From a virus, in IMG/VR virus record IMGVR_UViG_3300031950_000001, positions 64,001-128,000 of that record: 64,000 bases of DNA, one strand, 5' to 3'. Of this stretch, positions 3,497 to 63,082 are shown in pieces. The translations under genes were made by a program, and so were the position numbers. The notes beneath the pieces are model-generated. The model ran no database searches. It saw nothing but the letters and a program-made list of their open reading frames with translations, and was not told where the DNA came from. Within the stretch, counting starts at the first letter, position 1; each line of letters opens with the position of its first letter.

Positions 3497-3584
3497 AGTT
3501 GATTCCGGAATCAAATTTCCTTAAAAACGTACATATTCTAGCGAAACGGTAATGTCGTTAGTCTGTCAAAAAGGGGACTATTCT

Positions 3585-4058
3585 ATGTCTAACGTTTCGG
3601 AAACGACGTCAGTTCCAAAAGATACGGATATCGACGTTATTGAATATCTCAACTGTCTAGCGGCAGGAAGACCGTTTGAGGCTAAGTACACCTTATTTGG
3701 AAATCTTACCGTCATGTTTCGTGAGCTATCGCTTCATGATATCCGGCTTCTCGATGAAGCCGAACAAACCCAAAACATCAACCGCAAGCAAGCGGAGGTC
3801 TTTGCCGCAATATCGCGGTTTGAAAATCAACTTCAAAATAAGACTCACCTTTTTAAACCCGTCTCCGAGCTTGCCAGATCGACACAGAACGTCGTGTCCC
3901 ATCTTGTACGATGGTTTTGCGACAATATCGCGACCACGACGACCATCTATACCGCGATTGAAAATGTATATGACGACTTCAAGCAACGACTAGAGAAGAT
4001 CGTAAAACGGGCGGCGGATCCGGATTTTTTCGTAAAAACATCGCAGCAAGAGCAATAG
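3585..4058 (+). CDS. tail assembly chaperone (gpG-like)
   Basis: Ends in PDFF over slippery T TTT TTC followed by a strong hairpin; tail module context; ATG 3585 has a GGGG RBS. Confidence 0.65.
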   Translation: MSNVSETTSVPKDTDIDVIEYLNCLAAGRPFEAKYTLFGNLTVMFRELSLHDIRLLDEAEQTQNINRKQAEVFAAISRFENQLQNKTHLFKPVSELARSTQNVVSHLVRWFCDNIATTTTIYTAIENVYDDFKQRLEKIVKRAADPDFFVKTSQQEQ

Positions 4059-4072
4059 TTCTTGCTGCGATG
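4025..4072 (+). promoter_or_regulatory. programmed -1 ribosomal frameshift signal
   Basis: TTTTTTC heptamer 4025-4031 in X XXY YYZ phase, 7-nt spacer, hairpin CATCGCAGCAAGA/TCTTGCTGCGATG 4039-4072. Confidence 0.75.
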
Positions 4073-4276
4073 GATAGAATGCCGGTTGCAGTAAAAATTG
4101 CTTACTATTGTGTTCATGAGGCTGAACAGGCGGTTTTGATGTCGGCGCTGTTGAGCATTCTGTCGGCGCTTGACACCAGTAAGGCATCCAGTGCTGCGAG
4201 TGCGTTTAACTTTTTGTATGATTTCAATCAAATAGCGGCAATGATTTTACAAAGGCGTCGCGATGAATCCGGATGA
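4031..4276 (+). CDS. -1 frameshift extension (gpGT-like) of the tail chaperone
   Basis: The -1 frame from 4031 is open and continues into the 4070..4276 ORF. Confidence 0.65.
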   Translation, partial: RKNIAARAIVLAAMDRMPVAVKIAYYCVHEAEQAVLMSALLSILSALDTSKASSAASAFNFLYDFNQIAAMILQRRRDESG

Positions 4277-4706
4277 CCAACTTACGGAATTTTTAGGAAG
4301 ACTCGGTTCTGTTGTGACGGGGCTTGCCCCTTCCAGCGTGCTGGGGATGTTTGGCCAAAATACGAGTATAGGCGGCCGGTCAGCAAACACGGGCATATCA
4401 TCCAATCCCAGCACGTCTATTCCTTCGAGCGATTTGCCATTGCCACCAGCGCCGAATTTGAACACTGCTGGTTACGCGTCTAATGTTCCATCTCTCGGTT
4501 TGCCGCCAGCACCGAATTTCCCTGAGATACCTGTTCCTAATTTGGACGCTGCTGGTTACGCGTCGAATGTTCCACAGATCAATTTTCTGAGTCCTTATAC
4601 ATCCCCGATGCCCGCGGCTATACAAACACCGAATATTTCTACGACTCCGCCGGCGGATTCATACGCAGGACTGAATTTCGATAATATTACTTTCGAGCGC
4701 GCATGA
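4263..4706 (+). CDS. Pro-rich hypothetical protein with internal duplication (LPPAPN, AGYASNVP x2)
   Basis: ORF overlaps its neighbours in an operon-like way. Confidence 0.6.
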   Translation: MNPDDQLTEFLGRLGSVVTGLAPSSVLGMFGQNTSIGGRSANTGISSNPSTSIPSSDLPLPPAPNLNTAGYASNVPSLGLPPAPNFPEIPVPNLDAAGYASNVPQINFLSPYTSPMPAAIQTPNISTTPPADSYAGLNFDNITFERA

Positions 4707-5095
4707 CAATCACAGTATTGCCGGTAAAGAACCGTGCTGTTGCCGTCGTAAAGGACGCTGTACCGATTACGGTACAGTTTCATCATACCTTCGGCGGCGC
4801 GGTGAACCGAATAACGATTGCAAGACGAGCAGGTTATCAGGTTCTGCATACGCTAGGCAACATTTTGTTTTATGCGACCTTTGTCGAAAGAGCGTCGGTA
4901 GTCGAAATACAAGGTGCTCTGTACGCTCCATGCAACTCTAGTGGAGGACGACTCTATCCAGAAGGACCGTTGCCTGCGTTAAACGCGATCATGGCAGTGG
5001 GAGGGTTTCGGGGAATATGCGTCGAAACCGCGACGTCGTACGTTGCTGGCCCTGTATCTGCTTTTAGCCTTCGGCTGGTCGGAGTTTATGCCTAG
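4703..5095 (+). CDS. hypothetical tail/baseplate protein
   Basis: ATGA overlap with upstream gene; context. Confidence 0.45.
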   Translation: MTITVLPVKNRAVAVVKDAVPITVQFHHTFGGAVNRITIARRAGYQVLHTLGNILFYATFVERASVVEIQGALYAPCNSSGGRLYPEGPLPALNAIMAVGGFRGICVETATSYVAGPVSAFSLRLVGVYA

Positions 5096-6569
5096 CCTTG
5101 TTAAGTCGCCTCCTTTTACCGCATATTGCATTATTACGGGCGGCTCCGGCATAGCCGTAGCTCCCGTCGTGAAGATCGACTGTATTTACGCTAAGAATCA
5201 AATCCCGCAAGCGACAATTGTTGTTGCAGGCGGTTATGAGCTACGCAGCATACTAGCAGGTGTTCCGCAGCTAAGTCCAATCGCGTACATGTCGCCGAGG
5301 TTTACTGATTTATATGCGGCGGAAGTAGTTCTTGGCGGCACGACTCTTATAAGCGGTATTATTGTCCATCTTTCGCGAACCGAGACGGGAAGTTCGCTTC
5401 ACTACGAGCTGCATATCAATCATTGGCTTGACTGGCTAAACTATGCTGCGCCGCATTCGGCATATAGCTCGCCCGAAAATCCCGTCTGCCTAACTGGCCA
5501 TCCTTTCAACTTTGCTTTGCCTGCGGGCCAGCTTCCTATTGGAGGCCATCTTGTTTCCGCAATGCGACATTTATATGCGCTTGGCGATTTGTGGGAGGAC
5601 AAGGTCAAACCGTTTTTGATGCAAATTCTTCGTACCAACTTCCTCGAAGACGTAGGATTTTTCCGGCTTCCGGATATACCACAGGCCCGAATGGCGTTGA
5701 GCCGGATTACCTCGTTAGGGTTGCTTCCGACGGGACTTCTTAATATCATTCCAGAGCTTCCCAACGTTATTGCGATGCTGTGTCTTGATCTTCCCAAAAA
5801 ACCGGAAGAAAGCTGGGGAAGTACGTTATGGAAGCGCCTCGTTGAAGCTTTCTGTCCTTACTTTATGCTCGATATCATACCGTGCGTGCATTCGGCGCTT
5901 ATCGTTCCCTCGACACCGACGTGTCCGTATGCGTCATTTCCTATCTTGAGAGAAGAGCAGCTAGCAAATGTCGGGGCGCGGACATTCCAAAAATCCATTA
6001 TGTTTTATGGTTTATATACTCAGGTTCAAAGTATCTATGGGCTTGGTCCCGGCGACGTATCGGCTACTCCTATTGTGGGTGGCGTTGCCAATCCTTGGCC
6101 GGGCACTATTACCTTAAGACGTGCGCCGCCTATTCTTGATTATTTGCTTACACTGGCGCCGTCGGTGGTCTATACAGGAAACGTTTTGTCGATAGGCGAT
6201 CCGCGAGGGCAGTTTCCGATTGCTGCAAATAAAGGCGGTGATCCGGCCACGCTTGCCAACGCGGCCGCATATTCTATGATGATGCGAGAGTTCTTAGAAA
6301 CACGTAAAGCCGTGCTTGTCTGTACGCCGACATACGCATTCCGGGTTGCATCGCCGGGCTCGATTATTTCGTTTGTAGGCCCGTACCTAGGTTCGACGAT
6401 CTGGTATGGTTGTGTAGACGCTGTTAGAATTATGGTAGATTCGGAATCATGCCAAGCACAAATAACATATTCCCTCTCCTATTGTCGGAATGAAGCCGAA
6501 AACGCCGCGTGTCCGGATAGCAGTCCTTTATACGGTACCTATTTTAGTGGAGCACCGTTAATCGCGTAG
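5088..6569 (+). CDS. putative baseplate hub/late-control-D-like protein
   Basis: ~490 aa; GGAG RBS before ATG 5088; C-terminal PGSIISF...YGCVDAVRI pattern resembles hub proteins. Confidence 0.4.
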   Translation: MPSLVKSPPFTAYCIITGGSGIAVAPVVKIDCIYAKNQIPQATIVVAGGYELRSILAGVPQLSPIAYMSPRFTDLYAAEVVLGGTTLISGIIVHLSRTETGSSLHYELHINHWLDWLNYAAPHSAYSSPENPVCLTGHPFNFALPAGQLPIGGHLVSAMRHLYALGDLWEDKVKPFLMQILRTNFLEDVGFFRLPDIPQARMALSRITSLGLLPTGLLNIIPELPNVIAMLCLDLPKKPEESWGSTLWKRLVEAFCPYFMLDIIPCVHSALIVPSTPTCPYASFPILREEQLANVGARTFQKSIMFYGLYTQVQSIYGLGPGDVSATPIVGGVANPWPGTITLRRAPPILDYLLTLAPSVVYTGNVLSIGDPRGQFPIAANKGGDPATLANAAAYSMMMREFLETRKAVLVCTPTYAFRVASPGSIISFVGPYLGSTIWYGCVDAVRIMVDSESCQAQITYSLSYCRNEAENAACPDSSPLYGTYFSGAPLIA

Positions 6570-6571
6570 CC

Positions 6572-7015
6572 ATGGGATGCGGATGTGGAAAGAAAGCAAA
6601 TCAGCCTAACCAGCCTCCGATGCCAGCGCCGGTACCGCCTGCGCCGGCTGTCGGACATAGACCGTTGTTTCCTCCTCCACCACCCCCACCACCTTTTTTT
6701 CCACGACCGTCATTTCATCCTGTTGTAGGAGCACCGCCTATGAGAGCAGAAGGACGACCCAGTTGTATGGAATGTGTCGAGAAGCACATTGGAGCAGCGA
6801 TGGTTCTAGCAACGGAGCTTCAGCAAGGCTATCCATATCGGGTTCGTATTATAGGTCATTTGCATGAGGCAGAGGAAGAAAGTCTGCAATGGCCTGAGCT
6901 TTCGGCCTGTATTCGAGAAGAAAGGGTCAAATTCCAACAGTCCGGGGGTAAGATTTTGCCCAATTTTGATCGAATCATCGCCATTATGGGCCGATATGCG
7001 GCCGGGACCGCCTAA
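6572..7015 (+). CDS. hypothetical protein (MGCGCGKK start, poly-Pro linker, CxxC)
   Basis: ORF track, tight packing. Confidence 0.7.
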   Translation: MGCGCGKKANQPNQPPMPAPVPPAPAVGHRPLFPPPPPPPPFFPRPSFHPVVGAPPMRAEGRPSCMECVEKHIGAAMVLATELQQGYPYRVRIIGHLHEAEEESLQWPELSACIREERVKFQQSGGKILPNFDRIIAIMGRYAAGTA

Positions 7016-7192
7016 AATTTGATTCCGGAATCAAATTTTAGGCGAATTTGTGGCTTCTGCGGCGTCGAAAGTCGGGTTCGACAGGCCAGTTGTCGTTTTT
7101 TGAGGCATTTAATATTGGGGTGGCGTTTGCCACCCTTTTTGTTTTTAGTTATGTTTTTTTCGTGTCCCTCTTTTTTAGTTAGGAGGTGTTTC

Positions 7193-15207: not shown

Positions 15208-15621
15208 AGATTTGCTGAAATTAAGGGCATTTACAAACGGCCCGGGGCGTCCACATTTTGCTCCTTGTGGCGTCCCGGGCCATTTCTGAAGAGAATTTTT
15301 TGTCCCCTAAACTGGCCGCGACCCCGGCGGCCTAAAATAATCGGAGGGGCGCCCCCCAGCGTTTGTGCGGGTGAGGCTGATTCTGCCAGGTGGCTGCCGG
15401 CCTGGCGATTCCATAGTCGGGACACTGGCTTTTGGGGACAGCCGGTGCGACTATGAAGTGCCTTTTCCGGCGGCGTTTTTTTAGCTATTAGGCAATTTTT
15501 GATTCCGGAATCAAATTTTTTTAATCATATCGCCAAAAGTGCGGCATTTAATAATGGGAATGGCCATCGTGCGGTGCGATGGCTAATTTTTTTTACTTTT
15601 TTTACAATTGGAGGTTTTTTT

Positions 15622-19629: not shown

Positions 19630-19957
19630 GGAGGGGCGCTACAAAGCCGTTCCGATACGTCGGATCGACTTTCGGGCGCTTTTGTTAGGCCCGATATGGC
19701 TCGTACTCCAACGAGCTTATCTTGAAGCCTTAGCGACATTCCTCTTGCTAATTGGACTGTGGGGCTGTGGACTCCCTCTATTTGTGGCGATTATCGTGGT
19801 GAATATGCTAGTAAGTTACATTAATTTGGTCGTCCTTGATTCCCGGTTGCAGCGATCGGGATGGGACTACATAAGCTCAGTAGAGGCTAAAGATCCGCAT
19901 ACGGCGATAAAGTTGGTTTTGGACCCGTTTTTGTCTTTGAAGAAAGGAGTGAAATGA
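19604..19957 (+). CDS. DUF2628-like membrane protein
   Basis: FRALLLGPIWL followed by TM helices and LQRSGW. Confidence 0.6.
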   Translation: MAVYRVYCREGRYKAVPIRRIDFRALLLGPIWLVLQRAYLEALATFLLLIGLWGCGLPLFVAIIVVNMLVSYINLVVLDSRLQRSGWDYISSVEAKDPHTAIKLVLDPFLSLKKGVK

Positions 19958-20292
19958 TGTTTGATGACGATCAAGTCCACGATGATTTCGATCAACAGCC
20001 AGAGCAGCCAAGTTATGATGAGTTGTCAAAACACATTGTCTTGCCTTCGAAGGTAGTAGGCGTTTTTGTGGTACCGACTCCAGGAACGTTTAAACTATCG
20101 ATTTTGTGCATCCCCGAAAATGCCAAGCTCGAAGACGTAGGCAAGACGGAGCCCGCGGTACATGTCGTACTTTCGCTGCAGGACGTGGAAGCGCTGCTCC
20201 AGATGCTAAAAGACGGACTCGAAAGAGTCAAACTAGAACAAAAGGCACGATCGGCAGCGAATTATGGCCGTGAGCTGTTCGGACTGAGTTAG
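19954..20292 (+). CDS. hypothetical protein
   Basis: AAGGAG RBS; ORF. Confidence 0.7.
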   Translation: MMFDDDQVHDDFDQQPEQPSYDELSKHIVLPSKVVGVFVVPTPGTFKLSILCIPENAKLEDVGKTEPAVHVVLSLQDVEALLQMLKDGLERVKLEQKARSAANYGRELFGLS

Positions 20293-20777
20293 CCAGGCCA
20301 AAAAACCCTACTTGTAGGGGGTAGGCTTATAAAATTTGATTCCGGAATCAAATTTTGGCTTGTCCGTTTTGAAAAAATCTGTTAAATTGATTTAACAAAC
20401 CTCCTACCTGCCCGCCCCGCGGAGCACCGCAGAACACAATCCTGCGGGGCGGGCAGGGTTTAATCGTCCGTCCTATAACGAAAGGAGAAGGAGAAATGAA
20501 GTATCGTGCAATTGTGTCGGGTCTAATGGTTCTGTCGGTTTTGGCTGTTTCGTCGCTGCGAGCGGCTGATGTTCCGCCCGATATCGAGAAGAAGCATGTC
20601 CAAATGCTCTATCCAGTCGTCCGCGTGACGGTCAAGAACGCTGGCGGCTCTGGGACAATTCTCTATAGCGAAGATCGTGGAGATGGCTGTCAGACCTACG
20701 TTTTGACGAACTATCACGTTATCGAGGGAGCCATTAATATCGTTACCGAGTGGTCTTCGCTGGTTTACCAAACCTGC

Positions 20778-22004
20778 CTAAACCACGGCAGGTTTGGTAG
20801 GCTGCCTTTCTTCAGCCAATTTTGACGCTTCATCCAGAACTGCCCCGAAGGGTCTTACGTCCTGTCCACGTCCGTTTAGAGAGTCCGTGAACCCACTCCG
20901 GCCTCTGTTGATCAAACGTAACGCTTCCCGCTCAATGTTCCGAGCGGCGTTCAAATCCCTATCAGCGGTATACCCGCACTCACAAACAAACGTTCGGTCA
21001 CTCAGTGCCAAGTCTGATTTGACTACACCACACATTGGGCATAGCCGACTAGAGGGGAAGAAGCGGTCAACTTTTACCAATACGCCGCCGTACCACTCGG
21101 ATTTGTATCGTAACTGTCGTACAATCTCGCCAAGCCCAGCATCGGAGATTAGCAGGGCCATGCGGTGGTTACGCAGCATTCCGGCGACATTCAAATCTTC
21201 CACGCCGATAATCCGATAGGTGCGGGCGATCTCGGTCGTCATCTTGTGCAGATAATCCAACCGCTTGTTGGCTATCCGACGATGTAGCGTCGCCAACTTC
21301 TTCTTGGTGCGGTTCCAGCGACCGCTTCCCTCTTGTCGGCGGGATAGTTCGCGGCTCAGACGCTTTAACTTTCTCAGTCTTGAGCGTAGCAGCACTTGGT
21401 TCTCGTACCGCTTGCCATCTGAGAGAACAGCCAAAGTCCTGACGCCCACGTCTATCCCGACTGCCCCTTGTGGGTGCTTGTGTTCTGGTGGTTCGATTTC
21501 TACATTGACAGCAGCATACCAATGCCCTGCGTTCTCCGAAATAGTAACTGACTTGATTTCACCGTTAAACCTCAACACCTCGGCCATATTGATTGGTTTA
21601 TCTAACTTTTCCAACTTGAGCCAATGGCCGTCAATACGAACCCGTGTCCCGTCCATTCTGAAGGATAATTTGGATCGTTTCTTGGACTTGAACCTGGGAT
21701 AGCCCTTCTTAGTATCGCCATTCTTGCACCGGCGAAAGAACCTCGTGAATGCGTCATCAAGATTCCGAAAGCCAGTTTCTACAGCGCATTTAGAAACGTC
21801 CAGGGCCCAGGGGAACTGCTTGCGCTTGATGGCGTTGAATTGCCTTTTCAAGGTATAAGCTGATGGTTTCCTGCCAGCGGCATATTCTTTCTGCCACTCG
21901 GCCAAACCCCAATTGAAGGCAAATCTTGCCGTTCCGCAAGCCTTGCGCAGGTACTCGGTCTGTTGAGGCGTGGGATTAAGTCTGATTTTATGTGCTCGCT
22001 GCAT
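20778..22004 (-). CDS. tnpB: RNA-guided endonuclease TnpB
   Basis: HTH start (AHKIRLNPT), RuvC motifs GIDVG, VEDL and DRDLNAA, zinc finger CPMCG/CECG. Confidence 0.95.
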   Translation of the reverse strand: MQRAHKIRLNPTPQQTEYLRKACGTARFAFNWGLAEWQKEYAAGRKPSAYTLKRQFNAIKRKQFPWALDVSKCAVETGFRNLDDAFTRFFRRCKNGDTKKGYPRFKSKKRSKLSFRMDGTRVRIDGHWLKLEKLDKPINMAEVLRFNGEIKSVTISENAGHWYAAVNVEIEPPEHKHPQGAVGIDVGVRTLAVLSDGKRYENQVLLRSRLRKLKRLSRELSRRQEGSGRWNRTKKKLATLHRRIANKRLDYLHKMTTEIARTYRIIGVEDLNVAGMLRNHRMALLISDAGLGEIVRQLRYKSEWYGGVLVKVDRFFPSSRLCPMCGVVKSDLALSDRTFVCECGYTADRDLNAARNIEREALRLINRGRSGFTDSLNGRGQDVRPFGAVLDEASKLAEERQPTKPAVV

Positions 22005-22599
22005 CGGAGCTTTCCTTCTGCCTGCGCCCGCCTCGTGCTCCATATAACCGAGACGAAAAACTTACAATGATCGTCAGAATATCCTCAATCAACTCTTCGT
22101 GCTCGTTCTTCTCTTCCGCTTCTTCCAGAACTTCTACTCTGCAACCTACGCCATTGAAGAATCGCTCAATGGTTCGGAAACCAAAGCGGGTCAATCTATC
22201 TCGATGTTCAACTACAACCTTTTTGATTTTACCTTTGCAAGCCGCGTCTATGATCTTGAAGAACTGGCGGCGATTGTCGTTTAGACCAGAAGCAATCTCG
22301 GAACAGTCTAACACAATGCGATAACCGCGCTCCCTACAGGCTTCTATCAGCCTTTCATGCTGGCGGGTAAGATTCTCTACTTGCTTTTGTGTAGATACAC
22401 GAGCATACAAGGCTACGTCCTTCTCGGTTACAGTAACACCATCCGATATAGACAGGAGCTTTTCAATCTCGGCACTATCATAGCGACGATGCCCGCCAGC
22501 AGTACGGTGTTCAGTCAGCTTTCCATCCCTGAGCCACCGATGCAAGGTGGTCTTGGAGAGCCGATACTTCTGCTCGACTTCCGATTGCCTCAACAACAT
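21988..22599 (-). CDS. tnpA: IS607 serine transposase TnpA
   Basis: MerR-like HTH (TLHRW...GGHRRY), YARVST, DRLTRFG, FSSRLYG. Confidence 0.95.
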   Translation of the reverse strand: MLLRQSEVEQKYRLSKTTLHRWLRDGKLTEHRTAGGHRRYDSAEIEKLLSISDGVTVTEKDVALYARVSTQKQVENLTRQHERLIEACRERGYRIVLDCSEIASGLNDNRRQFFKIIDAACKGKIKKVVVEHRDRLTRFGFRTIERFFNGVGCRVEVLEEAEEKNEHEELIEDILTIIVSFSSRLYGARGGRRQKESSDAAST

Positions 22600-23511: not shown

Positions 23512-23615
23512 CAACGGCATTTCGTTGAGTCGATCTGGACGTGACTCTTCGTTTGAGATCGTCTTCACGACGATCTCGTTCTTCGTTATTCCCGCTTTCA
23601 CGAGGAGGCTTTCTT

Positions 23616-24296
23616 GTGACTCGTGTTATGTTCGAGGGGGTTATCGTATACCCCAATCAGATTTCTTGCGACCGTATTAAAAAGCTGCTCCAGTCTTACA
23701 TGGACGAGACGGGGTCGTATATCGTTACGGATAACCAGCCATCCGCCGTCTTTGTAGACACCGCCATTGTGTTTCCTGGCGATTACTATGACGGCTTTGA
23801 TGACCTTGTCCCGGAGCTGTTTTATAACGGAGAAGGATGGTTGTTATGGCACACACCGGCGCTCCAGCTTGTAGGCTTTATTCTCGATGGTCGCGAGATG
23901 GAAGGAACGGACTATGATTCTTACATTAAGTATGTTATAAATACAGGTAAGGTACCAAAAGTACCGCCTTCTCTAAGGCCGATTTGGCAAAGATACAGGT
24001 CGAGTCGAACGGAGCTCTATCAGCTGATTGGGCGCTATTATAAACACTCATTTCCTAATTTTGAGTTTATTGATCATTATTGCAAAGTATATGGCGGTGA
24101 TAGGAATGCGATTCTACGGTGTTGGATCGAGTCTATTGTGTGCCATAGCCGATGCTTCTTCCGACACAAATATCGTCGGGAGATAAAGCCGACGATGAGC
24201 ATTTTTAGGAAAGGCGTTAGATTATTGGACGCGCTTCTTTTGAACAAGGGCGTTACGTTGTTGGATGCACTGAAGTCGCAATCGAGCGGAAACTAA
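23616..24296 (+). CDS. hypothetical protein, diverged paralog family C copy 4
   Basis: FEGVIVYPNQIS, GWL and HKYRREIKPT motifs; GAGGAGG RBS. Confidence 0.7.
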   Translation: MTRVMFEGVIVYPNQISCDRIKKLLQSYMDETGSYIVTDNQPSAVFVDTAIVFPGDYYDGFDDLVPELFYNGEGWLLWHTPALQLVGFILDGREMEGTDYDSYIKYVINTGKVPKVPPSLRPIWQRYRSSRTELYQLIGRYYKHSFPNFEFIDHYCKVYGGDRNAILRCWIESIVCHSRCFFRHKYRREIKPTMSIFRKGVRLLDALLLNKGVTLLDALKSQSSGN

Positions 24297-24372
24297 CATT
24301 TTTACTCAAAATGGGTGGTAAGGAGTACCGCCTAAAATTTGATTCCGGAATCAAATTTTTTAGCTAGTCGCA

Positions 24373-28110: not shown

Positions 28111-29604
28111 GTGAAGGCACTAATCACGGTTGGAGGTCCTCTTATCTCTATCGCTGCCGATGAGCAGACGCCGCTTACCGGTTCGATCGTCGAAAAGATC
28201 ACCAAACCGCTCATCTTTACCAAGATTAAACTCAATTATCATCGAGGCAATCTCAACAAGCATCCGGAACGATGTGTTCTCTATCATGTTGACGAACAAG
28301 GTAAGATTTGGTGTCATCGTGGCTGGATCGACAAAATTCACCGTATGCTCTTGTCAGAGGGATATGAAGTTACTATAAAAGAGGATTGGCCGCCGCTGGC
28401 GCGACCCGACTGCTATACAGAAGATATCCAAGCGTTGGCAAATAGCCTCCAATTCCGGCCTAAACAGATTGAATGCATTGCGGCTTTGATCGCAAGAATT
28501 AGAGACCGACGAGGTGGTGTTGTTGTCGCTCCTCCAGCGTTTGGAAAGACAAAGCTCATCTCGGCGTTGTGCGTTCTCTATCCTAAGGCGAAGATCGATA
28601 TCATTACGCACGGTAACGAGCTCATTGAGGACCTTTATCGGCATGTTCTAAAGCTGACCCCGGACGTCGGTGTTATCGCCAAAGGAAGCTGCGACAAGCG
28701 TCGAGTAACGATTATCTCGGATATGAGTTTGAAGTATTCGGATGGAGACGCAGATATTGTATTGGCAGATGAAGTTCATAAACTCATGACGGATCGTGCG
28801 GTGAAGGAATTGGCAAGATACGATCACGCGTGTATGTTTGGATTTACGGCTACGCCCGACACACGGCTGGATAATGCCCATCGCCGAATGGAGGGGCTAT
28901 TTGGTCCAGTGATCTTTCAGGTCGATTGGGAAGAGGCTGTCCGGCTCGGGGTCGTTGTTCCCATTCACGTCTATATGCTTCATATCGATTCCGGTGTTCC
29001 GGTATCGAAATATTACCGCAGCCAAATTAGTATGAAACGCTTTGCGTATTGGCGAAATACGGTTCGTAATCGCCGAATTGCCGAAGCCGCCCGAAACTTT
29101 GTTAAAGCTGGGCTTCAGACCCTCATCCTAGTTGAAACCGTTGAGCATATGGTGTATCTTAAGGAGCTCCTTCCCGAATTTCAGGTCTGCTACAGCAACA
29201 TGAATTTAGACCGTCCGGCCATGAAATTCCTTCGAAGCCGCGGATTGCTGGAGAATGTTCCAAAACTTTCTTACCGCGATCGAATGGACGTCAAAGCGCG
29301 ATTCGAGAATCGTGATATAATGGGTTGTATCGCCACTACAATTTGGACGCAGGGTGTTAGCTTCGATAGTCTTCAGGTTCTTATCCGTGCTGATGGCGGC
29401 TATAGCGAGACCAATAACCAACAATGGCCTGGCCGCGTCGCCAGAATTGATCCGAAAACCAATAAATCGTATGGTATTCTGGTAGATTGCTTCGACGAGT
29501 TCGATGTTTGGACCAAGGCCAGGTCTTTCGCTCGCCTCAGGAGCTATCGCAGCAATGGCTGGCAAATCTCCCATCATCGGCCCAGTGAAACGCCTACCTT
29601 CTGA
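28111..29604 (+). CDS. superfamily 2 (UvsW/XPB-like) helicase
   Basis: APPAFGKT, ADEVH, GFTATP and QWPGRVAR motifs. Confidence 0.9.
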   Translation: MKALITVGGPLISIAADEQTPLTGSIVEKITKPLIFTKIKLNYHRGNLNKHPERCVLYHVDEQGKIWCHRGWIDKIHRMLLSEGYEVTIKEDWPPLARPDCYTEDIQALANSLQFRPKQIECIAALIARIRDRRGGVVVAPPAFGKTKLISALCVLYPKAKIDIITHGNELIEDLYRHVLKLTPDVGVIAKGSCDKRRVTIISDMSLKYSDGDADIVLADEVHKLMTDRAVKELARYDHACMFGFTATPDTRLDNAHRRMEGLFGPVIFQVDWEEAVRLGVVVPIHVYMLHIDSGVPVSKYYRSQISMKRFAYWRNTVRNRRIAEAARNFVKAGLQTLILVETVEHMVYLKELLPEFQVCYSNMNLDRPAMKFLRSRGLLENVPKLSYRDRMDVKARFENRDIMGCIATTIWTQGVSFDSLQVLIRADGGYSETNNQQWPGRVARIDPKTNKSYGILVDCFDEFDVWTKARSFARLRSYRSNGWQISHHRPSETPTF

Positions 29605-30259
29605 AATTCTTGCCACTTCGACGGTTCAAGCAAAGAATGAATTCGATCTCGAAAAGATAATCCGTGACTGCTATGTTGCAAATCGAAAGTATTACGTCGG
29701 CGATAGTCAATCCAAGTACGGAGATACGCAGACCCGATGGGACATGCCGTCCAGGAAGGACGGCCTTACCACCTGGGGCCGAATAGCTCGATTTCTTATC
29801 GAACATAATATCGATGATGTTCATCGCTATGTTCACGCCCAGTTTGCTGCCAGCGATAATCCAGCTGCACTCTACCCTCCATTTCTCATCGGCGGGAATG
29901 CCCTCAAAGCCTATCATGAGTACAATAGTACTGCGGATGAACGGCTAAGGTCGAGTCTTCATGCGGAGATCTCTCGATTTAGAACGGAAGTTGTCTTAAA
30001 CTCGAAGCCAGGTATGACTACGGAAGAGTGTTGGCGGTTTGTTTTGATGAATTCGGGCAATAGTATTTCGCCGCTCTTGCGTTATCTGTGTGCTGTCGAT
30101 ATTGGAGCTATGGATTTGGCGAAGTTTTGGTATGACGCTGCTATGTTGCAAGTCATCATGGATCCACGCGGATATATCCGCGTATGGGACGATTGTTTCA
30201 ACGGGCGTATCAAAACGTTGATTACCGGGGCCGGAATTTTGATTCCGGAATCAAAATAA
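29585..30259 (+). CDS. hypothetical replication-module protein
   Basis: ORF between two helicase genes; start uncertain. Confidence 0.6.
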   Translation: MKRLPSEILATSTVQAKNEFDLEKIIRDCYVANRKYYVGDSQSKYGDTQTRWDMPSRKDGLTTWGRIARFLIEHNIDDVHRYVHAQFAASDNPAALYPPFLIGGNALKAYHEYNSTADERLRSSLHAEISRFRTEVVLNSKPGMTTEECWRFVLMNSGNSISPLLRYLCAVDIGAMDLAKFWYDAAMLQVIMDPRGYIRVWDDCFNGRIKTLITGAGILIPESK

Positions 30260-31820: not shown

Positions 31821-32945
31821 GTGTTGCCTCTAAACGTCGAGCTTTATTCGATTCTCGAAAAAACCTTTGGATCCGTAAAGATCGCCAAAACCGGCGAACC
31901 GTTCCGCTATAATGCCGGAACGTTTGCCGGTTCTTCTTTTTTCGAAATCATCGATTACGGTGAAACGTACCGAGTCTGCTGTCCGTTCTGTCTGAAACGG
32001 GGCGATCCTGATCACCGCTACCGGCTATGGATCAGCCATGTTTGGGGCTGTTACATGCCCGAGTTGGATCGCAGACTATGGACAGCGGCAAAGTGCTTTC
32101 ATAATGACTGCTTGGCAGATAAAGACGCGCTCAACGCGCTTATCGACATGGTTTTTATCTCGACATACAACATTTCGACGACGGATTTCGTGTATCCGGA
32201 AATAGAAGAACGAACGATTCCAGACCTTCCAGGCGAGTGTATTCCTCTTACTCAGCTTCCACCAGATCATAAAGCTATCGTCTTTTTGAAGCAGCGGAAT
32301 TTTGATCCAGCGGAGCTATTTTCAAAATTTGGGGTGATGTACTGCCATAACTCATCACAGTACCCTTATGCTATCGACAAACTCGTCTTTCCGATCGACT
32401 TTGAAGGCCGACGAGTAGGTTGGCAATGCCGTTATATTGGCAATTCACCCAAGAACATGCCAAAGTATTTCTCGGCTCCCGGAATGAGCATTAGCCGCTA
32501 TGTCTACAACTATGATACGGCCAAAAACCACCCGTATGGGGTAATCGTGGAAGGGGTTTTCGACGCCATTCGAATCGGCTATGCGATTGCTGTTTTTGGA
32601 AAGACCATAAGCCGAGCGCAACTTTCACTTATTACCTCTACATGGAACAAATGCCTTGTATTCCTTGACCCCGATGCTGCCTATGACGCCGAGAAGATTG
32701 TCAGTACTTTGCGGCAGAACGGCGTCAAGGCGATTGCAATTACCGGGCATCCATCCGATCCCGGAAAGATGCCTGCGGAAATATGCCATCAGTGGATCGA
32801 CAAAGCTTTGACGACGCTGGAACATGATAATACCCCCTCGATCGAGGGATCCGAAGAGCCCTTTGCGGATTACAGTACGGCTATTGAGCAGACAATTCGT
32901 CGTCTCGAGGCCAGCCGCAATGGACATGAGCAGCCCAAAATTTGA
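31821..32945 (+). CDS. dnaG: DNA primase (DnaG-like, Zn finger + TOPRIM)
   Basis: CPFC...CF zinc motif, VEGVFDA, LDPDA. Confidence 0.9.
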   Translation: MLPLNVELYSILEKTFGSVKIAKTGEPFRYNAGTFAGSSFFEIIDYGETYRVCCPFCLKRGDPDHRYRLWISHVWGCYMPELDRRLWTAAKCFHNDCLADKDALNALIDMVFISTYNISTTDFVYPEIEERTIPDLPGECIPLTQLPPDHKAIVFLKQRNFDPAELFSKFGVMYCHNSSQYPYAIDKLVFPIDFEGRRVGWQCRYIGNSPKNMPKYFSAPGMSISRYVYNYDTAKNHPYGVIVEGVFDAIRIGYAIAVFGKTISRAQLSLITSTWNKCLVFLDPDAAYDAEKIVSTLRQNGVKAIAITGHPSDPGKMPAEICHQWIDKALTTLEHDNTPSIEGSEEPFADYSTAIEQTIRRLEASRNGHEQPKI

Positions 32946-33057
32946 TTCCGGAATCAAATTTTGATGCGAAAAGGCAAACCGACGGCATTTAATATTGGGA
33001 GGGCGGTTTCGGGCCGCCCGCGGCGATGTTTGTTAGCTAGTCGAAGGAGAGCCCGTC

Positions 33058-37243: not shown

Positions 37244-37339
37244 CGGGAAATAGTGCGTGAGGAGCACGGACAGGACGTCCGTGTCGCCTTCTTTTTGCAA
37301 AATTTGATTCCGGAATCAAATTTTTTGGAGGAGTTGGTG

Positions 37340-40463: not shown

Positions 40464-41204
40464 ATGGTTGGTAAATTCGCTGTCGATGGGCGTCGGCGTC
40501 CTTATCCTCCGCTGAAAGTAATTAAGCGTTTGGCCGATAAAATCTACAGCAATCTTCTCTTGTTTGCGGATAAGCCGATTCAGCAGGAGGAGATCGTCAA
40601 AATCGGCCAGCGGCTGATCGAGATTTTTAAGCCGCCCGATGAGAAAACGCTCTTTGACTGTCTCATACCTATTTATAATCAGACACTAAACAAATACGAA
40701 ATCGAGCGGTTCGCTTGGCGATTGGCGGCTAATGCTCGGCGAATCCGGAATTCGATTCCGGTGTCTTTTTGGTTTGGTCAGACAAAAGAAGAGCCGGCAA
40801 TTTGTCAGTTTATTGCCCCAGAGGAAGAAGGCGATGTTAGGCAAGGTTTTATGCGGTACTGTGTACTTACAGGTCCCGCAGCTACCATTACCGGACGTAT
40901 CTTTATCAACAGTTCTCGAAGATATCGTATTTATCGTGCAAGCAGCGTGAACGATCATCTGCGTCTTCGCTATCTATCGGCGGCAACATTTACGTGCCTT
41001 CTCATTCCGTCGCGAGCATCCTATCCGATGATCGATCCTTGGACTATCGGATGTACGAACAAACTTACCGCGCGTAACAAAAAACTTTTCGATCTCTGGT
41101 TACAAGCACGACGGGAACGGGTCGAAATAAAAGCTAGAAATGCCTATTATGTTCCGGTTATATTAAAGGATGGTTATACAAAAGACCTCGTAATTTCTTT
41201 TTAG
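40464..41204 (+). CDS. hypothetical protein
   Basis: ORF track. Confidence 0.7.
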   Translation: MVGKFAVDGRRRPYPPLKVIKRLADKIYSNLLLFADKPIQQEEIVKIGQRLIEIFKPPDEKTLFDCLIPIYNQTLNKYEIERFAWRLAANARRIRNSIPVSFWFGQTKEEPAICQFIAPEEEGDVRQGFMRYCVLTGPAATITGRIFINSSRRYRIYRASSVNDHLRLRYLSAATFTCLLIPSRASYPMIDPWTIGCTNKLTARNKKLFDLWLQARRERVEIKARNAYYVPVILKDGYTKDLVISF

Positions 41205-41225
41205 CTATTCAAGAAGGAGGCGGCA

Positions 41226-42976: not shown

Positions 42977-43375
42977 ATGTGTCGATGCAACGTAGAAACA
43001 CGTAGAGACGCTTGTGACATGCTGCAAAAAGGTCTCATGCGGTTTGCGACTGGAGCCGTGCGCAGTACCGACGCCGAAGGTGAACGGTGGGATCTGATTA
43101 CTCCGATTGGTTTAAGGCGTCTAGCCCAAACCTGCGCCGAAGGGGCTGCGAAATACGGCGAATATAATTGGCAGAAAGGTATTCCGGCTAGCGTAATGCT
43201 CAATCATGCGATACGGCATCTATATCTGTATTTGGCGGGGGATACAAACGAAGATCATCTTGCCCATGCGGCGTGGAATATCCTGGGCGTGTGTCATTTT
43301 GAAGAAGTTATGCCCGAAATGATCGACATTCCCACTCGACGTCGCGAAAAAACAAACGACGACAAAGCTGAGTAA
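42977..43375 (+). CDS. dATP/dGTP diphosphohydrolase (DUF5664-like)
   Basis: FATGAVRS, RWDLI, EGAAKYGEYNWQKG, RH and EDHLAHAAWN motifs. Confidence 0.85.
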   Translation: MCRCNVETRRDACDMLQKGLMRFATGAVRSTDAEGERWDLITPIGLRRLAQTCAEGAAKYGEYNWQKGIPASVMLNHAIRHLYLYLAGDTNEDHLAHAAWNILGVCHFEEVMPEMIDIPTRRREKTNDDKAE

Positions 43376-43451: not shown

Positions 43452-45227
43452 ATGGCTTCCGACGTCGTTAAATCCGATTCCGTTCCACAAGCTGCGGTCG
43501 CCGTCGATCCCAAGGAAATTCTCGAAAAGCTTGCCAAAACGGTTCAAGCCAACGACAACACCAGCGCGCTTCTTCCGGTTCTTTTCTCGTTAAACGGCGA
43601 ACCGCTTCGGCTGGAAGATCATTTTGTTTTCAAGCCGCTTTTTAACCTCCACCAGCCGATGGAAACGGTTCTGATGTGCGGTCGTCAAGTAGGGAAAACT
43701 ACCAATATCGCGGTTCAGAGCCTTCTATTAGCCGCCAGCCTTCCCTACTTTACGGTTACCGTGGTCTTCCCTCGGGAAATTCATGCCGCCCGATTCAGTA
43801 CCCTTTATCTTAGCCCGCTTCTCCGCTCATCAGTTATAAGCGATATTTTGATGGGCAAGGATAGCGTGGATCAGGTGTTCCAGAAAGACTTTACGAACGG
43901 ATCCCATATCATCCTGACCTATGCTTACGATAATCCCGATCGAACACGTGGTATTGCGGCAACACGGCTATTGTGTGACGAAACACAAGATATGCTCCTT
44001 ACGTCTATTGAAATCATTAAAGAGACGCTTTCTCATGCCAAATTTGGCGTACAGGCCCTTTATGCCGGAACTCCGAAAACGACAAGCAACACCTTAGCCA
44101 CCCTCTGGTACCGAAGCAGCCAAGCGGAATGGTTTATACGTTGTACCCATTGTACGACAAACGGTAAACCGACTTGGAACATTCCCTCGCCGGATCATCA
44201 TTTAGAGAAGCTTCTGGGACCCGTCCATGAGAAAATTTCCGAAAGATACCCTGCCTTACTGTGTCATAAATGCCGACAACCGATTTCGCCGCGAAACGGG
44301 CAATGGGTCCATCGATATCGAGATAGGATCCCCGATTTTACGGGGTATCACGTCCCCCAAATTCTTCTTCCGCATCATTATGCCAACCCTAGAAACTGGG
44401 CAACGCTTCTAAAGAAGACGAACGGTCCAACATACATCTTCTACAACGAGGTCATGGGGTGGCCATATGATGCTGCAGCCGCCATTGTAAGCGAGCAAGA
44501 TTTGATCCGTGCCTCTACATTAGGGGAAAATAAAGATGAACTTGCGGTCCAAGAGGCTAAAAAATATACGGTTACGGCTCTTGGTGTAGACTGGGGCGGC
44601 GGCGGGGAGGATATGACGAGCTTTACCACCCTTGCGCTTGTAGGCCTCTGTCCGGACGGCAAATTGCACGTCATTTGGGGGAAAAGGCTTCTTACGCCAA
44701 ACGATCATCTTCGTGAGGCCGCCGAAATCTGCCGGTATTGCTGTTACTTTAACCCTACTTTTCTGGCCCACGACTACGGCGGAGGAGGTACGGTTCGTGA
44801 GACAATCCTTGTAAATGCCGGCTTTCCGGACCACAAAATCGTCCCCATGTTATATGCGGGAACGAGCATGGCGGCCGTTTATAAGGTTAAAGAGCCGAAC
44901 GAGCTTAACCCTCGTTCTTACATCCTCATTAATAAAACAAAGACCATTCAGATACTTTGTGCGCTTATCAAACTTGGCCAGATTAGATTTTTTGCTTATA
45001 ACAGGCAGAATCCGCAGGAATGCTTAACGGCCGATTTTCTGAATTTGAAAGAAGAGCGTACCGTTTCTCTCGTCCGCGAGCGCTATCATATCTCTAAGCA
45101 AACCGGCTCTATCGACGATTTCGTTCACGCCGTCAACTATGCGTGCATTGCCATATGGCTAAATACGCGCTGGCCCGATATGGCAAATGCCGTGGCTGAA
45201 TACGCGTCGGAGCAACTCGTCGAATAA
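43452..45227 (+). CDS. terL: terminase large subunit
   Basis: GRQVGKT, RG, CDE, GTPK, GVDWG and DDFVHA motifs; CxxC pairs as in GpA-like terminases. Confidence 0.88.
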   Translation: MASDVVKSDSVPQAAVAVDPKEILEKLAKTVQANDNTSALLPVLFSLNGEPLRLEDHFVFKPLFNLHQPMETVLMCGRQVGKTTNIAVQSLLLAASLPYFTVTVVFPREIHAARFSTLYLSPLLRSSVISDILMGKDSVDQVFQKDFTNGSHIILTYAYDNPDRTRGIAATRLLCDETQDMLLTSIEIIKETLSHAKFGVQALYAGTPKTTSNTLATLWYRSSQAEWFIRCTHCTTNGKPTWNIPSPDHHLEKLLGPVHEKISERYPALLCHKCRQPISPRNGQWVHRYRDRIPDFTGYHVPQILLPHHYANPRNWATLLKKTNGPTYIFYNEVMGWPYDAAAAIVSEQDLIRASTLGENKDELAVQEAKKYTVTALGVDWGGGGEDMTSFTTLALVGLCPDGKLHVIWGKRLLTPNDHLREAAEICRYCCYFNPTFLAHDYGGGGTVRETILVNAGFPDHKIVPMLYAGTSMAAVYKVKEPNELNPRSYILINKTKTIQILCALIKLGQIRFFAYNRQNPQECLTADFLNLKEERTVSLVRERYHISKQTGSIDDFVHAVNYACIAIWLNTRWPDMANAVAEYASEQLVE

Positions 45228-45411
45228 GTTATAATAAGATAAGTGAGAAATTAGATTCCGGAATTTTAGCAGCCTACGATGAATACCCTTTTTGGGGGGT
45301 TTCGTCAGAATTTGATTCCGGAATCAAATTTTTTAAAATGTTACGAACGTCAAGAATCGTAATAAATTTGATTCCGGAATCAAATTTTTTAACTCTATCG
45401 GAGGCAAGACG

Positions 45412-49471: not shown

Positions 49472-49495
49472 AAATTTGATTCCGGAATCAAATTT

Positions 49496-55732: not shown

Positions 55733-55777
55733 GAAACAGCGACAAGGACAAAAAAATTTGATTCCGGAATCAAAATT

Positions 55778-59155: not shown

Positions 59156-59176
59156 TTCCGCAAAGGGATTCCAATC

Positions 59177-60386: not shown

Positions 60387-61254
60387 AGTCGTAGAAGCCT
60401 GCGTCGTCGTATCCGATCTTCATTGTGGCTGTCAATTGGGCTTGTGCCACGAGAAGAGCATTCTTCTTGACGAAGGGGGCTTTTACACTCCCTCCGAACT
60501 TCAGCAAAAATTGTGGAAATGGTGGCGCGAATTTTGGGATGAATGGGTTCCGTTTGTTACAGGAAATGAACCGTATTGTGTCGTCGTTAATGGCGATGTT
60601 ATCGACGGGGTTCATCATCGATCCGTAACGCAAATTACGCATAATTTGGCCGATCAGATCAAAATTGCGCACCTGATTCTATCCGAAGTTGCCGAGCGTT
60701 GTGATCATCGATTGTTCTTCATTCGTGGCACGGAGGCTCATGCCGGCCCTAGCGCCGAATATGAGGAGCTTTTGGCGAAAGAGTTGGGGGCAATAAAGGC
60801 TAGAGACGGCAAATCATCCCGGTACGACCTTCTTTTAGAAATAGGCGGAGGGCTGGCTCATTTTGCCCATCACATTTCTGTGTCCGGGTCGATGCACTAT
60901 GAAAGCACGGCCCTGATGAAGGAGCTATCGGAGTCCTTCGTTGAGTGTACGCGATGGGGATCACGACATCCTGATATGATTGTGCGAAGCCATCGGCACC
61001 GCCACATGGAAGTACGGTGTTATACGGCTTCTGGGTTGACGACGGTTGTCACCACGCCAGGATGGCAACTAAAAACACCGTTTGCCTACAAAATGCCTGG
61101 TGCAAGACCGGCTCTTCCCCAGATAGGGGGTATTGTGATAAGATGGCATAAAAATACCCTGTTTACTCAGGCGTTTATCAAAAACATTCAACATGCAGAA
61201 CCGGAGTTAGTCTATGTCAAGAAGTCAAATCACCGTCGACGAGTTACTTCGTGA
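60331..61254 (+). CDS. calcineurin-like metallophosphoesterase
   Basis: SDLH, NGDVIDG, RGTEAH and SHRH motifs. Confidence 0.85.
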   Translation: MSRHTRTRPKAPKRTAKHKVVEACVVVSDLHCGCQLGLCHEKSILLDEGGFYTPSELQQKLWKWWREFWDEWVPFVTGNEPYCVVVNGDVIDGVHHRSVTQITHNLADQIKIAHLILSEVAERCDHRLFFIRGTEAHAGPSAEYEELLAKELGAIKARDGKSSRYDLLLEIGGGLAHFAHHISVSGSMHYESTALMKELSESFVECTRWGSRHPDMIVRSHRHRHMEVRCYTASGLTTVVTTPGWQLKTPFAYKMPGARPALPQIGGIVIRWHKNTLFTQAFIKNIQHAEPELVYVKKSNHRRRVTS

Positions 61255-61495
61255 GATTAAGCGTATTGAGCAGTCCCAAGATGGTATTACGACCAAAGAA
61301 TTAGCCAACAAGCTTGGCGTTTCCGAAGCGACTGCTCTACGAAGGATACGGGAGCTACACGCGAGAGGCCTTATAAAAATCGGGTTTCGTCGCGCGGCAA
61401 ATATTCTCGGCAATCCTACGTTTGTGCCCGTCTACACGCTCAGTGCCAAGGCGTCTCCGACTAAAAATACAAGAAGAAGGGCAAAATCAACATGA
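61214..61495 (+). CDS. winged-HTH DNA-binding protein
   Basis: ITTKELANKLGVSEATALRRIRELHARGLI. Confidence 0.8.
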   Translation: MSRSQITVDELLREIKRIEQSQDGITTKELANKLGVSEATALRRIRELHARGLIKIGFRRAANILGNPTFVPVYTLSAKASPTKNTRRRAKST

Positions 61496-62097: not shown

Positions 62098-62174
62098 CGA
62101 TAAATTAGCGAAAATTGCGGCATTTAATATTGGGATGGCCAAGTTAATTTGGCCATCCCAATTTTTTTATTAAT

Positions 62175-62240
62175 GGGCCGGACCGGACGTTGAGGCGGGT
62201 TTTGAGCCCGTCGAAGTGGGTTCGACTCCCACCCGGCCTG
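62175..62240 (+). tRNA. tRNA-Gln(UUG)-like gene with truncated D-arm
   Basis: Acceptor GGGCCGG/CCGGCCT, anticodon arm GCGGG-TTTTGAG-CCCGT, T arm GTGGG-TTCGACT-CCCAC; D region only 13 nt; no encoded CCA. Confidence 0.6.
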
Positions 62241-62327
62241 CTTTTTTAGGACTGACGACCAGCTATTCCCGCCTGGCTGGTCGTCAGTTGGTGATCGGCG
62301 GGAGGCTCTTTTTTTAGTGGAGATGTT

Positions 62328-62984
62328 ATGATGGATTGGGCAAGTTGGGACGATGTCATCCGCTGGGCGTTCAGCCCAGCAACCAATGTTGAGGAACTCC
62401 AGGAGGCCCTCGAAGCGGCCTCCCTAGAAGAGTTCGAGACCCGGGAACCGAAAGCGGTTTCCGAAGAGGCCAAACGGGCGGCGTACCAACTAGCGGTGGC
62501 GCTGGGTCGATGCCGGGCGTTTGGGGTCCTTGTCCCCGTGGACATAGATGGCACCTTACATCCGCAGGTAGCCATCGCCGCGGCGGAGATAGGAGAAACT
62601 TTCCTTCGACAATGGATCGAGCGCGCGGAACAATTGGGTGTCCGGTGGGTCCACGCCGAACCGGAATTGGCCGAAACAATGGGCGCCGAGTTATTAGAAG
62701 CCCGAATGGAAGCCCTCTTCGTTCTGGAGGCTCTTTCCGAAGCGCAAGATGCGAGCTGGAACGAGCCGGCTTCCGCAGAACTCGGGGATGCAGTGAATCG
62801 ATACGTTGATGCGCTCGAGGCCTTCGACAAGGCCCTGCAGACCCCGGGAACCATCGGGCTGCTCTCTACCGCGGTTCACCTGCCGCTTTTGGAGAATTGG
62901 CGGCAGAGTTTAGCCGGCCATTACAAGGAGGTTTTGCCCTGGTGGCTGGACGGAACGCTGGAGAGAGCGATCCAGCAAAATTAA
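62328..62984 (+). CDS. hypothetical acidic helical protein (GC-rich)
   Basis: GGAG RBS; followed by a terminator. Confidence 0.75.
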   Translation: MMDWASWDDVIRWAFSPATNVEELQEALEAASLEEFETREPKAVSEEAKRAAYQLAVALGRCRAFGVLVPVDIDGTLHPQVAIAAAEIGETFLRQWIERAEQLGVRWVHAEPELAETMGAELLEARMEALFVLEALSEAQDASWNEPASAELGDAVNRYVDALEAFDKALQTPGTIGLLSTAVHLPLLENWRQSLAGHYKEVLPWWLDGTLERAIQQN

Positions 62985-62992
62985 GTTTTTCT

Positions 62993-63040
62993 GGCAGTCG
63001 TCCGGATTGTCCCCTCCGATCCGGACGGCTGCCGTTTTTT
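62993..63040 (+). terminator. probable intrinsic terminator
   Basis: GGCAGTCGTCCGGAT/ATCCGGACGGCTGCC stem followed by T6. Confidence 0.75.
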
Positions 63041-63082
63041 AGCTATGCAAAAATTTGATTCCGGAATCAAAAATGCTACCGG

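Follow-up and report, generated by a model that had tools for sequence, protein, structure and literature searches.

A symmetric, lineage-specific palindrome at the gene junctions of an uncultured phage that encodes its own RNA polymerase and sigma factor

The DNA analysed here, which we call the window, is a 64,000-nucleotide stretch comprising bases 64001-128000 of the 144,055-bp IMG/VR virus record IMGVR_UViG_3300031950_000001. The record represents an uncultured phage, designated G000 below, with direct terminal repeats of 1,741 bp. Copies of a 16-bp palindrome, TTGATTCCGGAATCAA, lie at its gene junctions; the likeliest role of this palindrome is that of a lineage-specific transcription signal, and a chromosome-organising role is less probable. 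Coordinates of features are those of the window unless marked as genome.

The palindrome and the genome that carries it

Proteins encoded in the window include an SbcC-like protein, two helicases, a DNA polymerase, the terminase large subunit, a RecA-like protein and a LigD-like ligase. Outside the window, the phage encodes a multisubunit RNA polymerase, with a 1453-amino-acid fused beta/beta'-N protein (Rpb2_6, Rpb2_3, Rpb1_1 and Rpb1_2) and a beta'-C protein of 616 amino acids (Rpb1_5), together with a sigma70-family factor of 273 amino acids (Sigma70_r3 and r4) whose regions 2-3 resemble SigA/RpoD. These are the sole polymerase set and the sole sigma factor of G000. A DNA similarity search against 50,697 phage records gave no match, and neither did an Rfam scan of the window; by polymerase and terminase, Salmonella phage Arash and three Vibrio phages come nearest among cultured relatives, at about 27-30% identity. 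In Arash, the homologues of beta, beta' and sigma are abundant virion proteins (PMC10585845).

An original prediction, made from the letters of the window, had described 13 exact copies of the palindrome, often extended by A/T tracts and placed at gene junctions at fairly even intervals, and had compared them with chromosome-organising sites for a dimeric protein. We found all 13 copies (Table 1), where shuffled sequences lead to an expectation of 0.02, and no additional match to TTGATTCCGGAATCAA at one or two mismatches in the window. Counting over the complete genome, which had been proposed as a check, yielded 33 exact and five one-mismatch copies (38 in total), with a mean interval of about 4 kb. 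The A/T extension also holds: across the 38 copies, conservation runs from position -5 to +21, or about 26 bp, in the form AAAAWT-core-AWTTTT, and beyond these limits no position is conserved on either side. The flanks are symmetric in composition, and covariation between their paired positions is not above what A/T composition predicts. The centres of the two half-sites are 10 bp apart.

Every copy in the genome lies at a gene junction, as had been claimed for the window, though at least 85% of the genome is coding; three calls of a copy inside an open reading frame (ORF) result from over-long ORF starts. About 85% of the genes are on one strand, and minus-strand ORFs are mostly doubtful. At roughly half of the sites the stop codon of the preceding gene falls within the motif or 2-8 nt ahead of it, and the overlaps reported for the copies at 30239 and 32942 are real, with the last codons of an ORF running through the first and a TGA inside the second. 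The spacing is more even than expected, the coefficient of variation of the intervals being 0.61, as against 0.96 for uniform positions (P = 0.0008) and 0.91 for random gene junctions (P = 0.005). The motif stands in front of early-looking, polymerase, replication, packaging and tail modules alike, and not near the terminal repeats of G000.

The finer details of the prediction fared equally well. The copies at 7019 and 24339 have the flank ACCGCCTAAAAT in common, each copy contains two GANTC sites (GATTC and GAATC), and the copy at 63055 directly precedes an array, which is a retron-like noncoding RNA array about 12 nt further on. The sequence TCCGGA, which forms the centre of the motif, occurs 50 times in the window and is not avoided elsewhere. 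At the paralogous copies 42054/43054 and 28737/30468 (genome coordinates), the downstream flank is common to both members of the pair and the upstream flank is not. Literature searches gave no description of such an element. We conclude that the motif is a real, selected, genome-wide cis-element.

Lineage-specific forms of the motif

The closest relative of G000 is IMGVR_UViG_3300020153_000001, designated G001, in which the polymerase is 83%, the sigma factor 77% and the median protein 61.5% identical. G001 has zero copies of TTGATTCCGGAATCAA and carries 30 exact copies and one variant copy of TTGACTCCGGAGTCAA, which differs from TTGATTCCGGAATCAA by one mirrored pair, at core positions 5 and 12. 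A third lineage, with a polymerase about 54% identical and a G+C content of 58% versus 48%, has the motif TTGAATCCGGATTCAA in two partial genomes (12+1 and 6+1 exact and deviating copies); its sigma factor is not on these partial contigs. Core positions 5/12 are thus T:A in G000, C:G in G001 and A:T in the third lineage. In a fourth lineage (L121), whose sigma factor is 38% identical, three junctions within 15 kb carry another invariant palindrome, TAGAATTTAAATTCTA, which overlaps a stop codon and abuts an ATG; it has the half-site skeleton T-GA-T in common with TTGATTCCGGAATCAA. No comparable palindrome was found in 80 further polymerase relatives (29-43% identity) or in phage Arash.

At least 12 sites are exactly syntenic between G000 and G001. 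Over 16 syntenic sites, 14 of the 16 core positions are constant and both mirrored positions have switched in every case, and the 40-nt flanks are about 60% identical, compared with 55% for unrelated sequence. Across the four genomes eight copies deviate from their lineage's form: five change the central CCGG to CCAG or CTGG, two have a substitution in an arm and one has a substitution at position 10. Presence or absence of the motif at some junctions differs between relatives, for example at genome 67499. The pattern across lineages indicates that almost every position is recognised by its sequence, with a single position as the lineage discriminator. The lineage forms of the motif, its concerted switch at syntenic sites, and the polymerase and sigma genes are new in this analysis.

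Some copies occur as tandem pairs. The spacers of three such pairs (40 nt) are related, at window 45328-45367 and at genome 18618-18656 and 138347-138386 (...CGTATTACGG...GATTCGTAATAAAT), and a comparable sequence is found ahead of one palindrome of the third lineage (L077). The two tandem pairs with a mapped syntenic counterpart correspond to single copies in G001. Repeats of another kind occur among more distant phages: a genome with a fused polymerase, L014 (IMGVR_UViG_3300035105_000276), carries the non-palindromic intergenic repeat TCTTATAACAAA, with four matches at no more than one mismatch (three of them exact), and the Arash loci L010, L221 and L222 carry the non-palindromic intergenic repeats TGGTATAAGTAA and CAAACGTTGTAACC. 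These repeats may be the promoters of the phages concerned.

A possible gene-start signal and the competing readings

We tentatively favour the reading that the palindrome is a gene-start or promoter-type signal in duplex DNA for the phage's own polymerase, and that it is read with two-fold symmetry. The motif would mark the starts of transcription units as a cis-acting duplex-DNA signal, and its user would be the phage's own sigma-containing multisubunit RNA polymerase. Two-fold reading could be due to a dimeric specificity factor, or to the polymerase itself binding in one orientation or the other. Some 30-40 copies are identical within each lineage and lineages differ at one mirrored pair, a pattern known from T7, T3 and SP6 promoters, where the polymerase or factor co-evolves with its sites. 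The presence of one polymerase, one sigma factor and one motif before all gene classes points to the holoenzyme as reader; the symmetry of the motif points to a dimer. We infer that transcription starts at the motif, and likewise where it starts and which protein reads it. Rather more doubtful is the wider proposal that a universal two-fold-symmetric junction element of 16-20 bp is the gene-start signal of this phage clade, with lineages made orthogonal by one mirrored pair; such an element could possibly be a stop/start or a bidirectional signal.

Several observations are consistent with a gene-start signal. As in T7-like promoter systems, many near-identical junction copies have been switched in concert between lineages (33, 30, 12 and 6 exact copies), and the perfect two-fold symmetry, together with the weakness of the hairpin that the motif could form in RNA, fits duplex-DNA recognition by a symmetric (dimeric) protein. 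The sole tRNA gene of G000 lies 7 nt downstream of a palindrome, as tRNA-Met followed by TTTTTTAGCTA (a T-run and AGCTA), making a self-contained small unit, and several other copies are followed by a noncoding stretch of about 55-95 nt that ends in a hairpin and T-run. At three clear sites a terminator precedes the palindrome, namely at 63055 (19 nt), 15499 (21 nt) and genome 17815 (35 nt). Such arrangements are most simply read as a terminator followed by a start signal, and they are individual cases rather than a statistical trend.

The start codons downstream fall into two classes. In the first, the start codon is at positions 18-22 from the motif start and has no separate ribosome-binding site; such abutting starts number two in G000 (49476 and 55758), seven of 31 in G001, two in the third lineage and one in the fourth. 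In the second, it is at position 30 or beyond and the gene has a Shine-Dalgarno sequence of its own. Were the motif to drive transcription of the abutting genes and of the tRNA (position 23), the start would have to lie at or before positions 18-23, and TTGATT could therefore not serve as a canonical -35 element. A leaderless start just past the palindrome, and a start in or before the palindrome with its internal GGA(G) as ribosome-binding site, fit equally well. Abutting starts are commonest in G001, which is the lineage with GGAG inside the motif.

Other signals in the genome are directional. A separate class of terminators consists of heterogeneous, stable GC hairpins (-20 to -32 kcal/mol) followed by a T-run and AGCTA; their signature TTTTTAGCTA occurs 13 times in forward and once in reverse orientation genome-wide, where about 0.1 would be expected per 64 kb, and is also found in G001. 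The fixed AGCTA tail after the T-run is conserved. Being polar and variable in their stems, these terminators are the real directional signals of the genome, unlike the palindrome, which is neither. A second polar element, the box GGCATTTA(A/C)WWWTGG, occurs 24 times forward and twice in reverse in G000 (8:0 in G001), with window copies at 7104, 15226, 15543, 32984 and 62119 and a group of 14 at genome 5-17.5 kb. It often lies about 14 nt downstream of TAAAGATT and is then followed by a hairpin and T-run. This box represents either a second class of promoters or the conserved 5' portion of a small-RNA family, and the copy ahead of the DNA polymerase gene resembles a leader or attenuator.

A number of results weigh against a gene-start signal. 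The asymmetric, gene-oriented sequence of T7-like promoters is missing here, core and flanks both being symmetric, and we found no directional determinant at the motif; the symmetry is perfect despite about 85% of genes facing one way, and a symmetric promoter should fire antisense. A bipartite sigma70 promoter was rejected, as there is no conserved -10 element at positions 23-28 (17 bp after TTGATT) and genes and the tRNA start at positions 18-23. In sigma region 4.2 the recognition helices of G000 and G001, the T/A and C/G lineages, are identical apart from one S/A change, and region 4.2 therefore finds no support as the reader of the switched position. (Sigma region 2.3 reads THH in one and TNH in the other; with two lineages only, this carries no argument.) Hairpin strength is not significantly greater upstream of the motif than downstream (in G000, fractions at -12 kcal/mol or below of 0.32 versus 0.16; P = 0.32 by Wilcoxon test), and the tRNAs of G001 are not preceded by the motif. 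Finally, the GGAG of the motif could serve in the translation of the seven abutting genes of G001, which would require transcription to begin within or ahead of the palindrome, or to continue into it from further upstream.

It is conceivable, if unlikely, that the motif is instead the operator of a global dimeric phage DNA-binding protein, acting as repressor, roadblock or insulator, with the promoters being other, weaker sequences. Bound at every junction, such a protein would partition or time transcription, much as stoperators of Cluster A mycobacteriophages or protein roadblock terminators do. The perfectly symmetric core and flanks and the tolerance of the central CG (five of the eight variants change CCGG to CCAG or CTGG) speak for this reading, as do the A-tract and T-tract flanks, which are typical of bent protein-DNA complexes, the 10-bp distance between half-site centres and the symmetric lineage-specific switch, which is what a homodimer predicts. 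The polar GGCATTTA box and the T-run with AGCTA could then be the real start and stop signals. Most copies, however, have no other conserved promoter element; several sites leave no room for a promoter, with 2-7 nt to an ATG or tRNA; and sigma70-like promoters are not enriched in the early-looking region tested (13 versus 11.5 +/- 2.8). Candidate binders do exist, namely a TetR_C-like protein, a 93-amino-acid winged-helix protein (Table 1) and two STIV_B116-like proteins; the phage also encodes a cold-shock-domain protein and a CsrA-like protein as further candidates for binding nucleic acids. The winged-helix protein was rejected as a fast-evolving partner of the motif, as its identity of 46% between G000 and G001 is unremarkable and no outlier. 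There was no match to a GerE-type regulator in G000, and neither an integrase nor a CI-type repressor was among the listed Pfam matches, nor was an immunity module seen.

The only recombinase among the listed Pfam matches lies in an IS607-like insertion (window 20778-22599, minus strand), one of the few real minus-strand blocks. The insertion carries no palindrome and encodes TnpB (OrfB_IS605 with a Cas12f-like TNB domain, 421 amino acids) and a serine resolvase (MerR-type helix-turn-helix, 203 amino acids).

We regard as improbable the reading that the motif acts in RNA, as a protein-recognised junction hairpin for processing, 3'-end formation or translation control of the next gene. In one variant, the GGA(G) that lies 6-9 nt before abutting starts would be sequestered, possibly through the CsrA-like protein. 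Stop codons just before or inside the motif at about half of the sites suit this reading, as do the two distances of start codons and the frequency of abutting starts in the lineage with GGAG. On the sense strand, G-U pairing would accommodate both stem variants, the remaining variants fall in the would-be loop, and three Watson-Crick pairs (U-A, C-G and A-U) are found at one stem position across lineages. The copy at 24339 has a terminator-like T-run with AGCTA directly after it. Against this, the predicted hairpin is of marginal stability (-1.6 kcal/mol for the core and -6.2 kcal/mol with flanks at 37 C; unfolded at 65 C), and no other stem position covaries, so structure alone is not what is conserved; nor do the flank pairs covary. 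Copies just past strong terminators would rarely be transcribed, ORF 29504-30259 is translated through the copy at 30239 in the same frame in G000 and G001, and the palindrome of the distant lineage has no GGA. Downstream of the core, G000 has a T-run, whereas G001 has AAAA and then W, with no U-tract. The hairpin energy, the missing U-tract of G001 and the ORF through the copy at 30239 speak against an intrinsic terminator. The CsrA-like RNA-binding protein has 76 amino acids and is encoded at genome 5388-5618 (L005:5388-5618); GGA would lie at the top of the hairpin in every palindrome, if transcribed.

The comparison with parS, matS and NBS sites made in the original prediction survives in part. 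The element is selected and genome-wide, and its symmetry fits a dimeric protein; that it condenses or positions the phage chromosome, or serves its segregation or packaging, seems very improbable. An invariant 16-bp palindrome found genome-wide regardless of gene class, and more evenly spaced than gene junctions at large, is what this reading has in its favour, and operon-sized units also give even spacing. The ParB_N family (PF02195) has no match in the complete genome, where control genomes matched. The 38 copies are unclustered over 144 kb, none is near the terminal repeats, and they are locked with nucleotide precision to gene boundaries, RNA-gene starts and terminator ends, which organisation sites do not need; several copies stand directly before RNA genes or after polar terminators, in a phage equipped with a polymerase and a single sigma factor of its own. 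Among the readings that invoke a protein-binding site, the parS-like one has the least support, and the evidence lies nearer to an ordinary promoter or operator.

That the motif is a selfish or defence-related sequence, such as a miniature mobile palindrome or a protected restriction or methylation site, is barely credible: its variable presence between relatives (genome 67499) and the restriction-type palindromes within it (TCCGGA and two GANTC) are set against the lack of target-site duplications or longer element bodies, at least 12 exactly syntenic sites, the unavoided TCCGGA, the lack of an N6/N4 methylase (PF01555, CcrM-type) match in G000 and a fourth-lineage motif without GANTC. The GANTC sites are incidental to the motif, because their N is the sole position that varies between lineages, L121 has GAATT and no CcrM-type methylase is encoded. 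A gene beside that of the terminase (window 42977-43375) codes for a protein with a dATP/dGTP diphosphohydrolase (MazZ-like) domain. Taken with a radical-SAM protein and several glycosyltransferases encoded elsewhere, it is a hint that the DNA may contain modified bases; if present, these would affect the reading of the palindrome by proteins.

Table 1. Palindrome copies and associated features in the window
Feature	Position	Strand	Context
Palindrome copy	3499..3514	.	2 nt after stop of gene 872-3496; 38 nt before ATG 3552
Palindrome copy	7019..7034	.	3 nt after stop of gene 6572-7015; palindrome 10 pairs longer here; GGCATTTA box and hairpin/T-run downstream; syntenic with G001 copy
Palindrome copy	15499..15514	.	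After polar terminator (T-run + AGCTA, 15478-15487); followed by a unit of about 95 nt with GGCATTTA box at 15543 and hairpin + T-run ending near 15594
Palindrome copy	20336..20351	.	After gene 19954-20292; GC hairpin upstream; syntenic with G001 copy
Palindrome copy	24339..24354	.	After gene 23541-24296; sole copy with T-run + AGCTA directly downstream (24357-24366)
Palindrome copy	30239..30254	.	Inside last codons of ORF 29504-30259, same frame in G001; 16 nt before DnaB-like gene 30270-31808, which has its own AAGGAG
Palindrome copy	32942..32957	.	Overlaps TGA stop of gene 31821-32945; followed by GGCATTTA box (32984), hairpin leader and DNA polymerase gene 33058-35964
Palindrome copy	37304..37319	.	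8 nt after GC hairpin + T-run (37259-37296); 21 nt before ATG 37341 (GGAGG upstream) of RecA-like gene
Palindrome copy, first of tandem pair	45312..45327	.	After terminase large-subunit gene 43452-45227
Palindrome copy, second of tandem pair	45368..45383	.	29 nt before ATG 45412; exactly syntenic with G001 single copy
Palindrome copy	49476..49491	.	Between stop 49471 and ATG 49496 (position 20 from motif start); no separate ribosome-binding site; syntenic in G001 with ATG at position 18
Palindrome copy	55758..55773	.	Position 20 from motif start is ATG 55778 of the DNA-ligase gene; syntenic in G001, where the ATG is at position 18
Palindrome copy	63055..63070	.	After strong terminator (hairpin -32 kcal/mol, T-run + AGCTA at 63036-63045)
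Winged-helix protein gene (93 amino acids)	61214..61495	+	Candidate symmetric binder; no evidence ties it to the motif
Terminator signature TTTTTAGCTA	63036..63045	+	Other window copies 15478-15487, 24357-24366 and 41198-41207

Comparison with known systems

No promoters are known for metagenomic phages with deep-branching beta/beta' polymerases, and the sigma-bearing group to which G000 belongs has no described transcription signal. If the palindrome is a gene-start signal, it would represent an unusual promoter architecture, symmetric and in a single block, with abutting, leaderless-type starts. Its three natural specificity variants, one mirrored pair apart, would offer a handle on how DNA is read by sigma, polymerase or a partner, and would be a source of orthogonal expression parts, as natural orthogonal promoter/factor pairs for a bacterial-type RNA polymerase. 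If it is a global operator or roadblock instead, it would constitute a stoperator-like system in a probably virulent, polymerase-encoding phage. Either way, the motif lets transcription units be drawn on the uncultured genomes of the clade.

Among known palindromic sites, those of ParB (parS) and Noc (NBS) are similar in being 14-16-bp palindromes bound by a dimeric protein, in which two base changes can switch specificity. The palindrome described here differs in occurring without a ParB-family gene, in being unclustered and excluded from genes, and in being tied to transcript boundaries. The FNR box is TTGAT-N4-ATCAA with AAAT/ATTT flanks and the CRP box is TGTGA-N6-TCACA; half-site centres about one turn apart are typical of dimeric helix-turn-helix proteins. 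The motif resembles the FNR box in its TTGAT/ATCAA halves and A/T flanks; its spacer, however, is N6 (2 bp longer), and its centre TCCGGA is invariant. With TTGAT-N6-ATCAA the motif matches neither an FNR nor a CRP box, and beyond weak HTH_Crp_2 matches on the sigma factor and on the 93-amino-acid winged-helix protein, no Crp-family regulator was detected.

The stoperators of Cluster A mycobacteriophages (the sites of L5 gp71) are alike in number and placement, with about 25-35 near-identical sites in short intergenic gaps, and from one immunity group to another their sequence changes together with the protein that binds them. They differ in that they are asymmetric 13-14-mers, follow the direction of transcription and belong to temperate phages whose repressor is known, whereas the sites here are symmetric; a lysogeny module for a stoperator-type system was not found among the listed Pfam matches.

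Phage-specific promoters for multisubunit enzymes are also known. In the non-virion RNA polymerases of phiKZ and AR9, and in T4 late transcription, in which TATAAATA is used with gp55, a short phage-specific consensus is the whole promoter (PMC7598289, PMC5449584). These motifs are short, asymmetric and degenerate, none being an invariant palindrome of 16-20 bp, and the enzymes concerned work without a sigma70-type factor. Salmonella phage Arash has the same fused polymerase as G000, and the palindrome is absent from it.

The promoters of the T7 group (T7, T3 and SP6) are alike in comprising tens of near-identical blocks of about 20 bp at gene junctions, in genomes with near-unidirectional transcription, and upstream genes may overlap them. 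As in the lineages compared here, one or a few fixed positions distinguish all copies of one phage of the group from those of its relatives; in the T7 group these positions follow the polymerase of each phage. T7-type promoters are asymmetric and are used by a single-subunit polymerase, whereas the palindrome of G000 is symmetric and accompanies a beta/beta' enzyme with a sigma factor.

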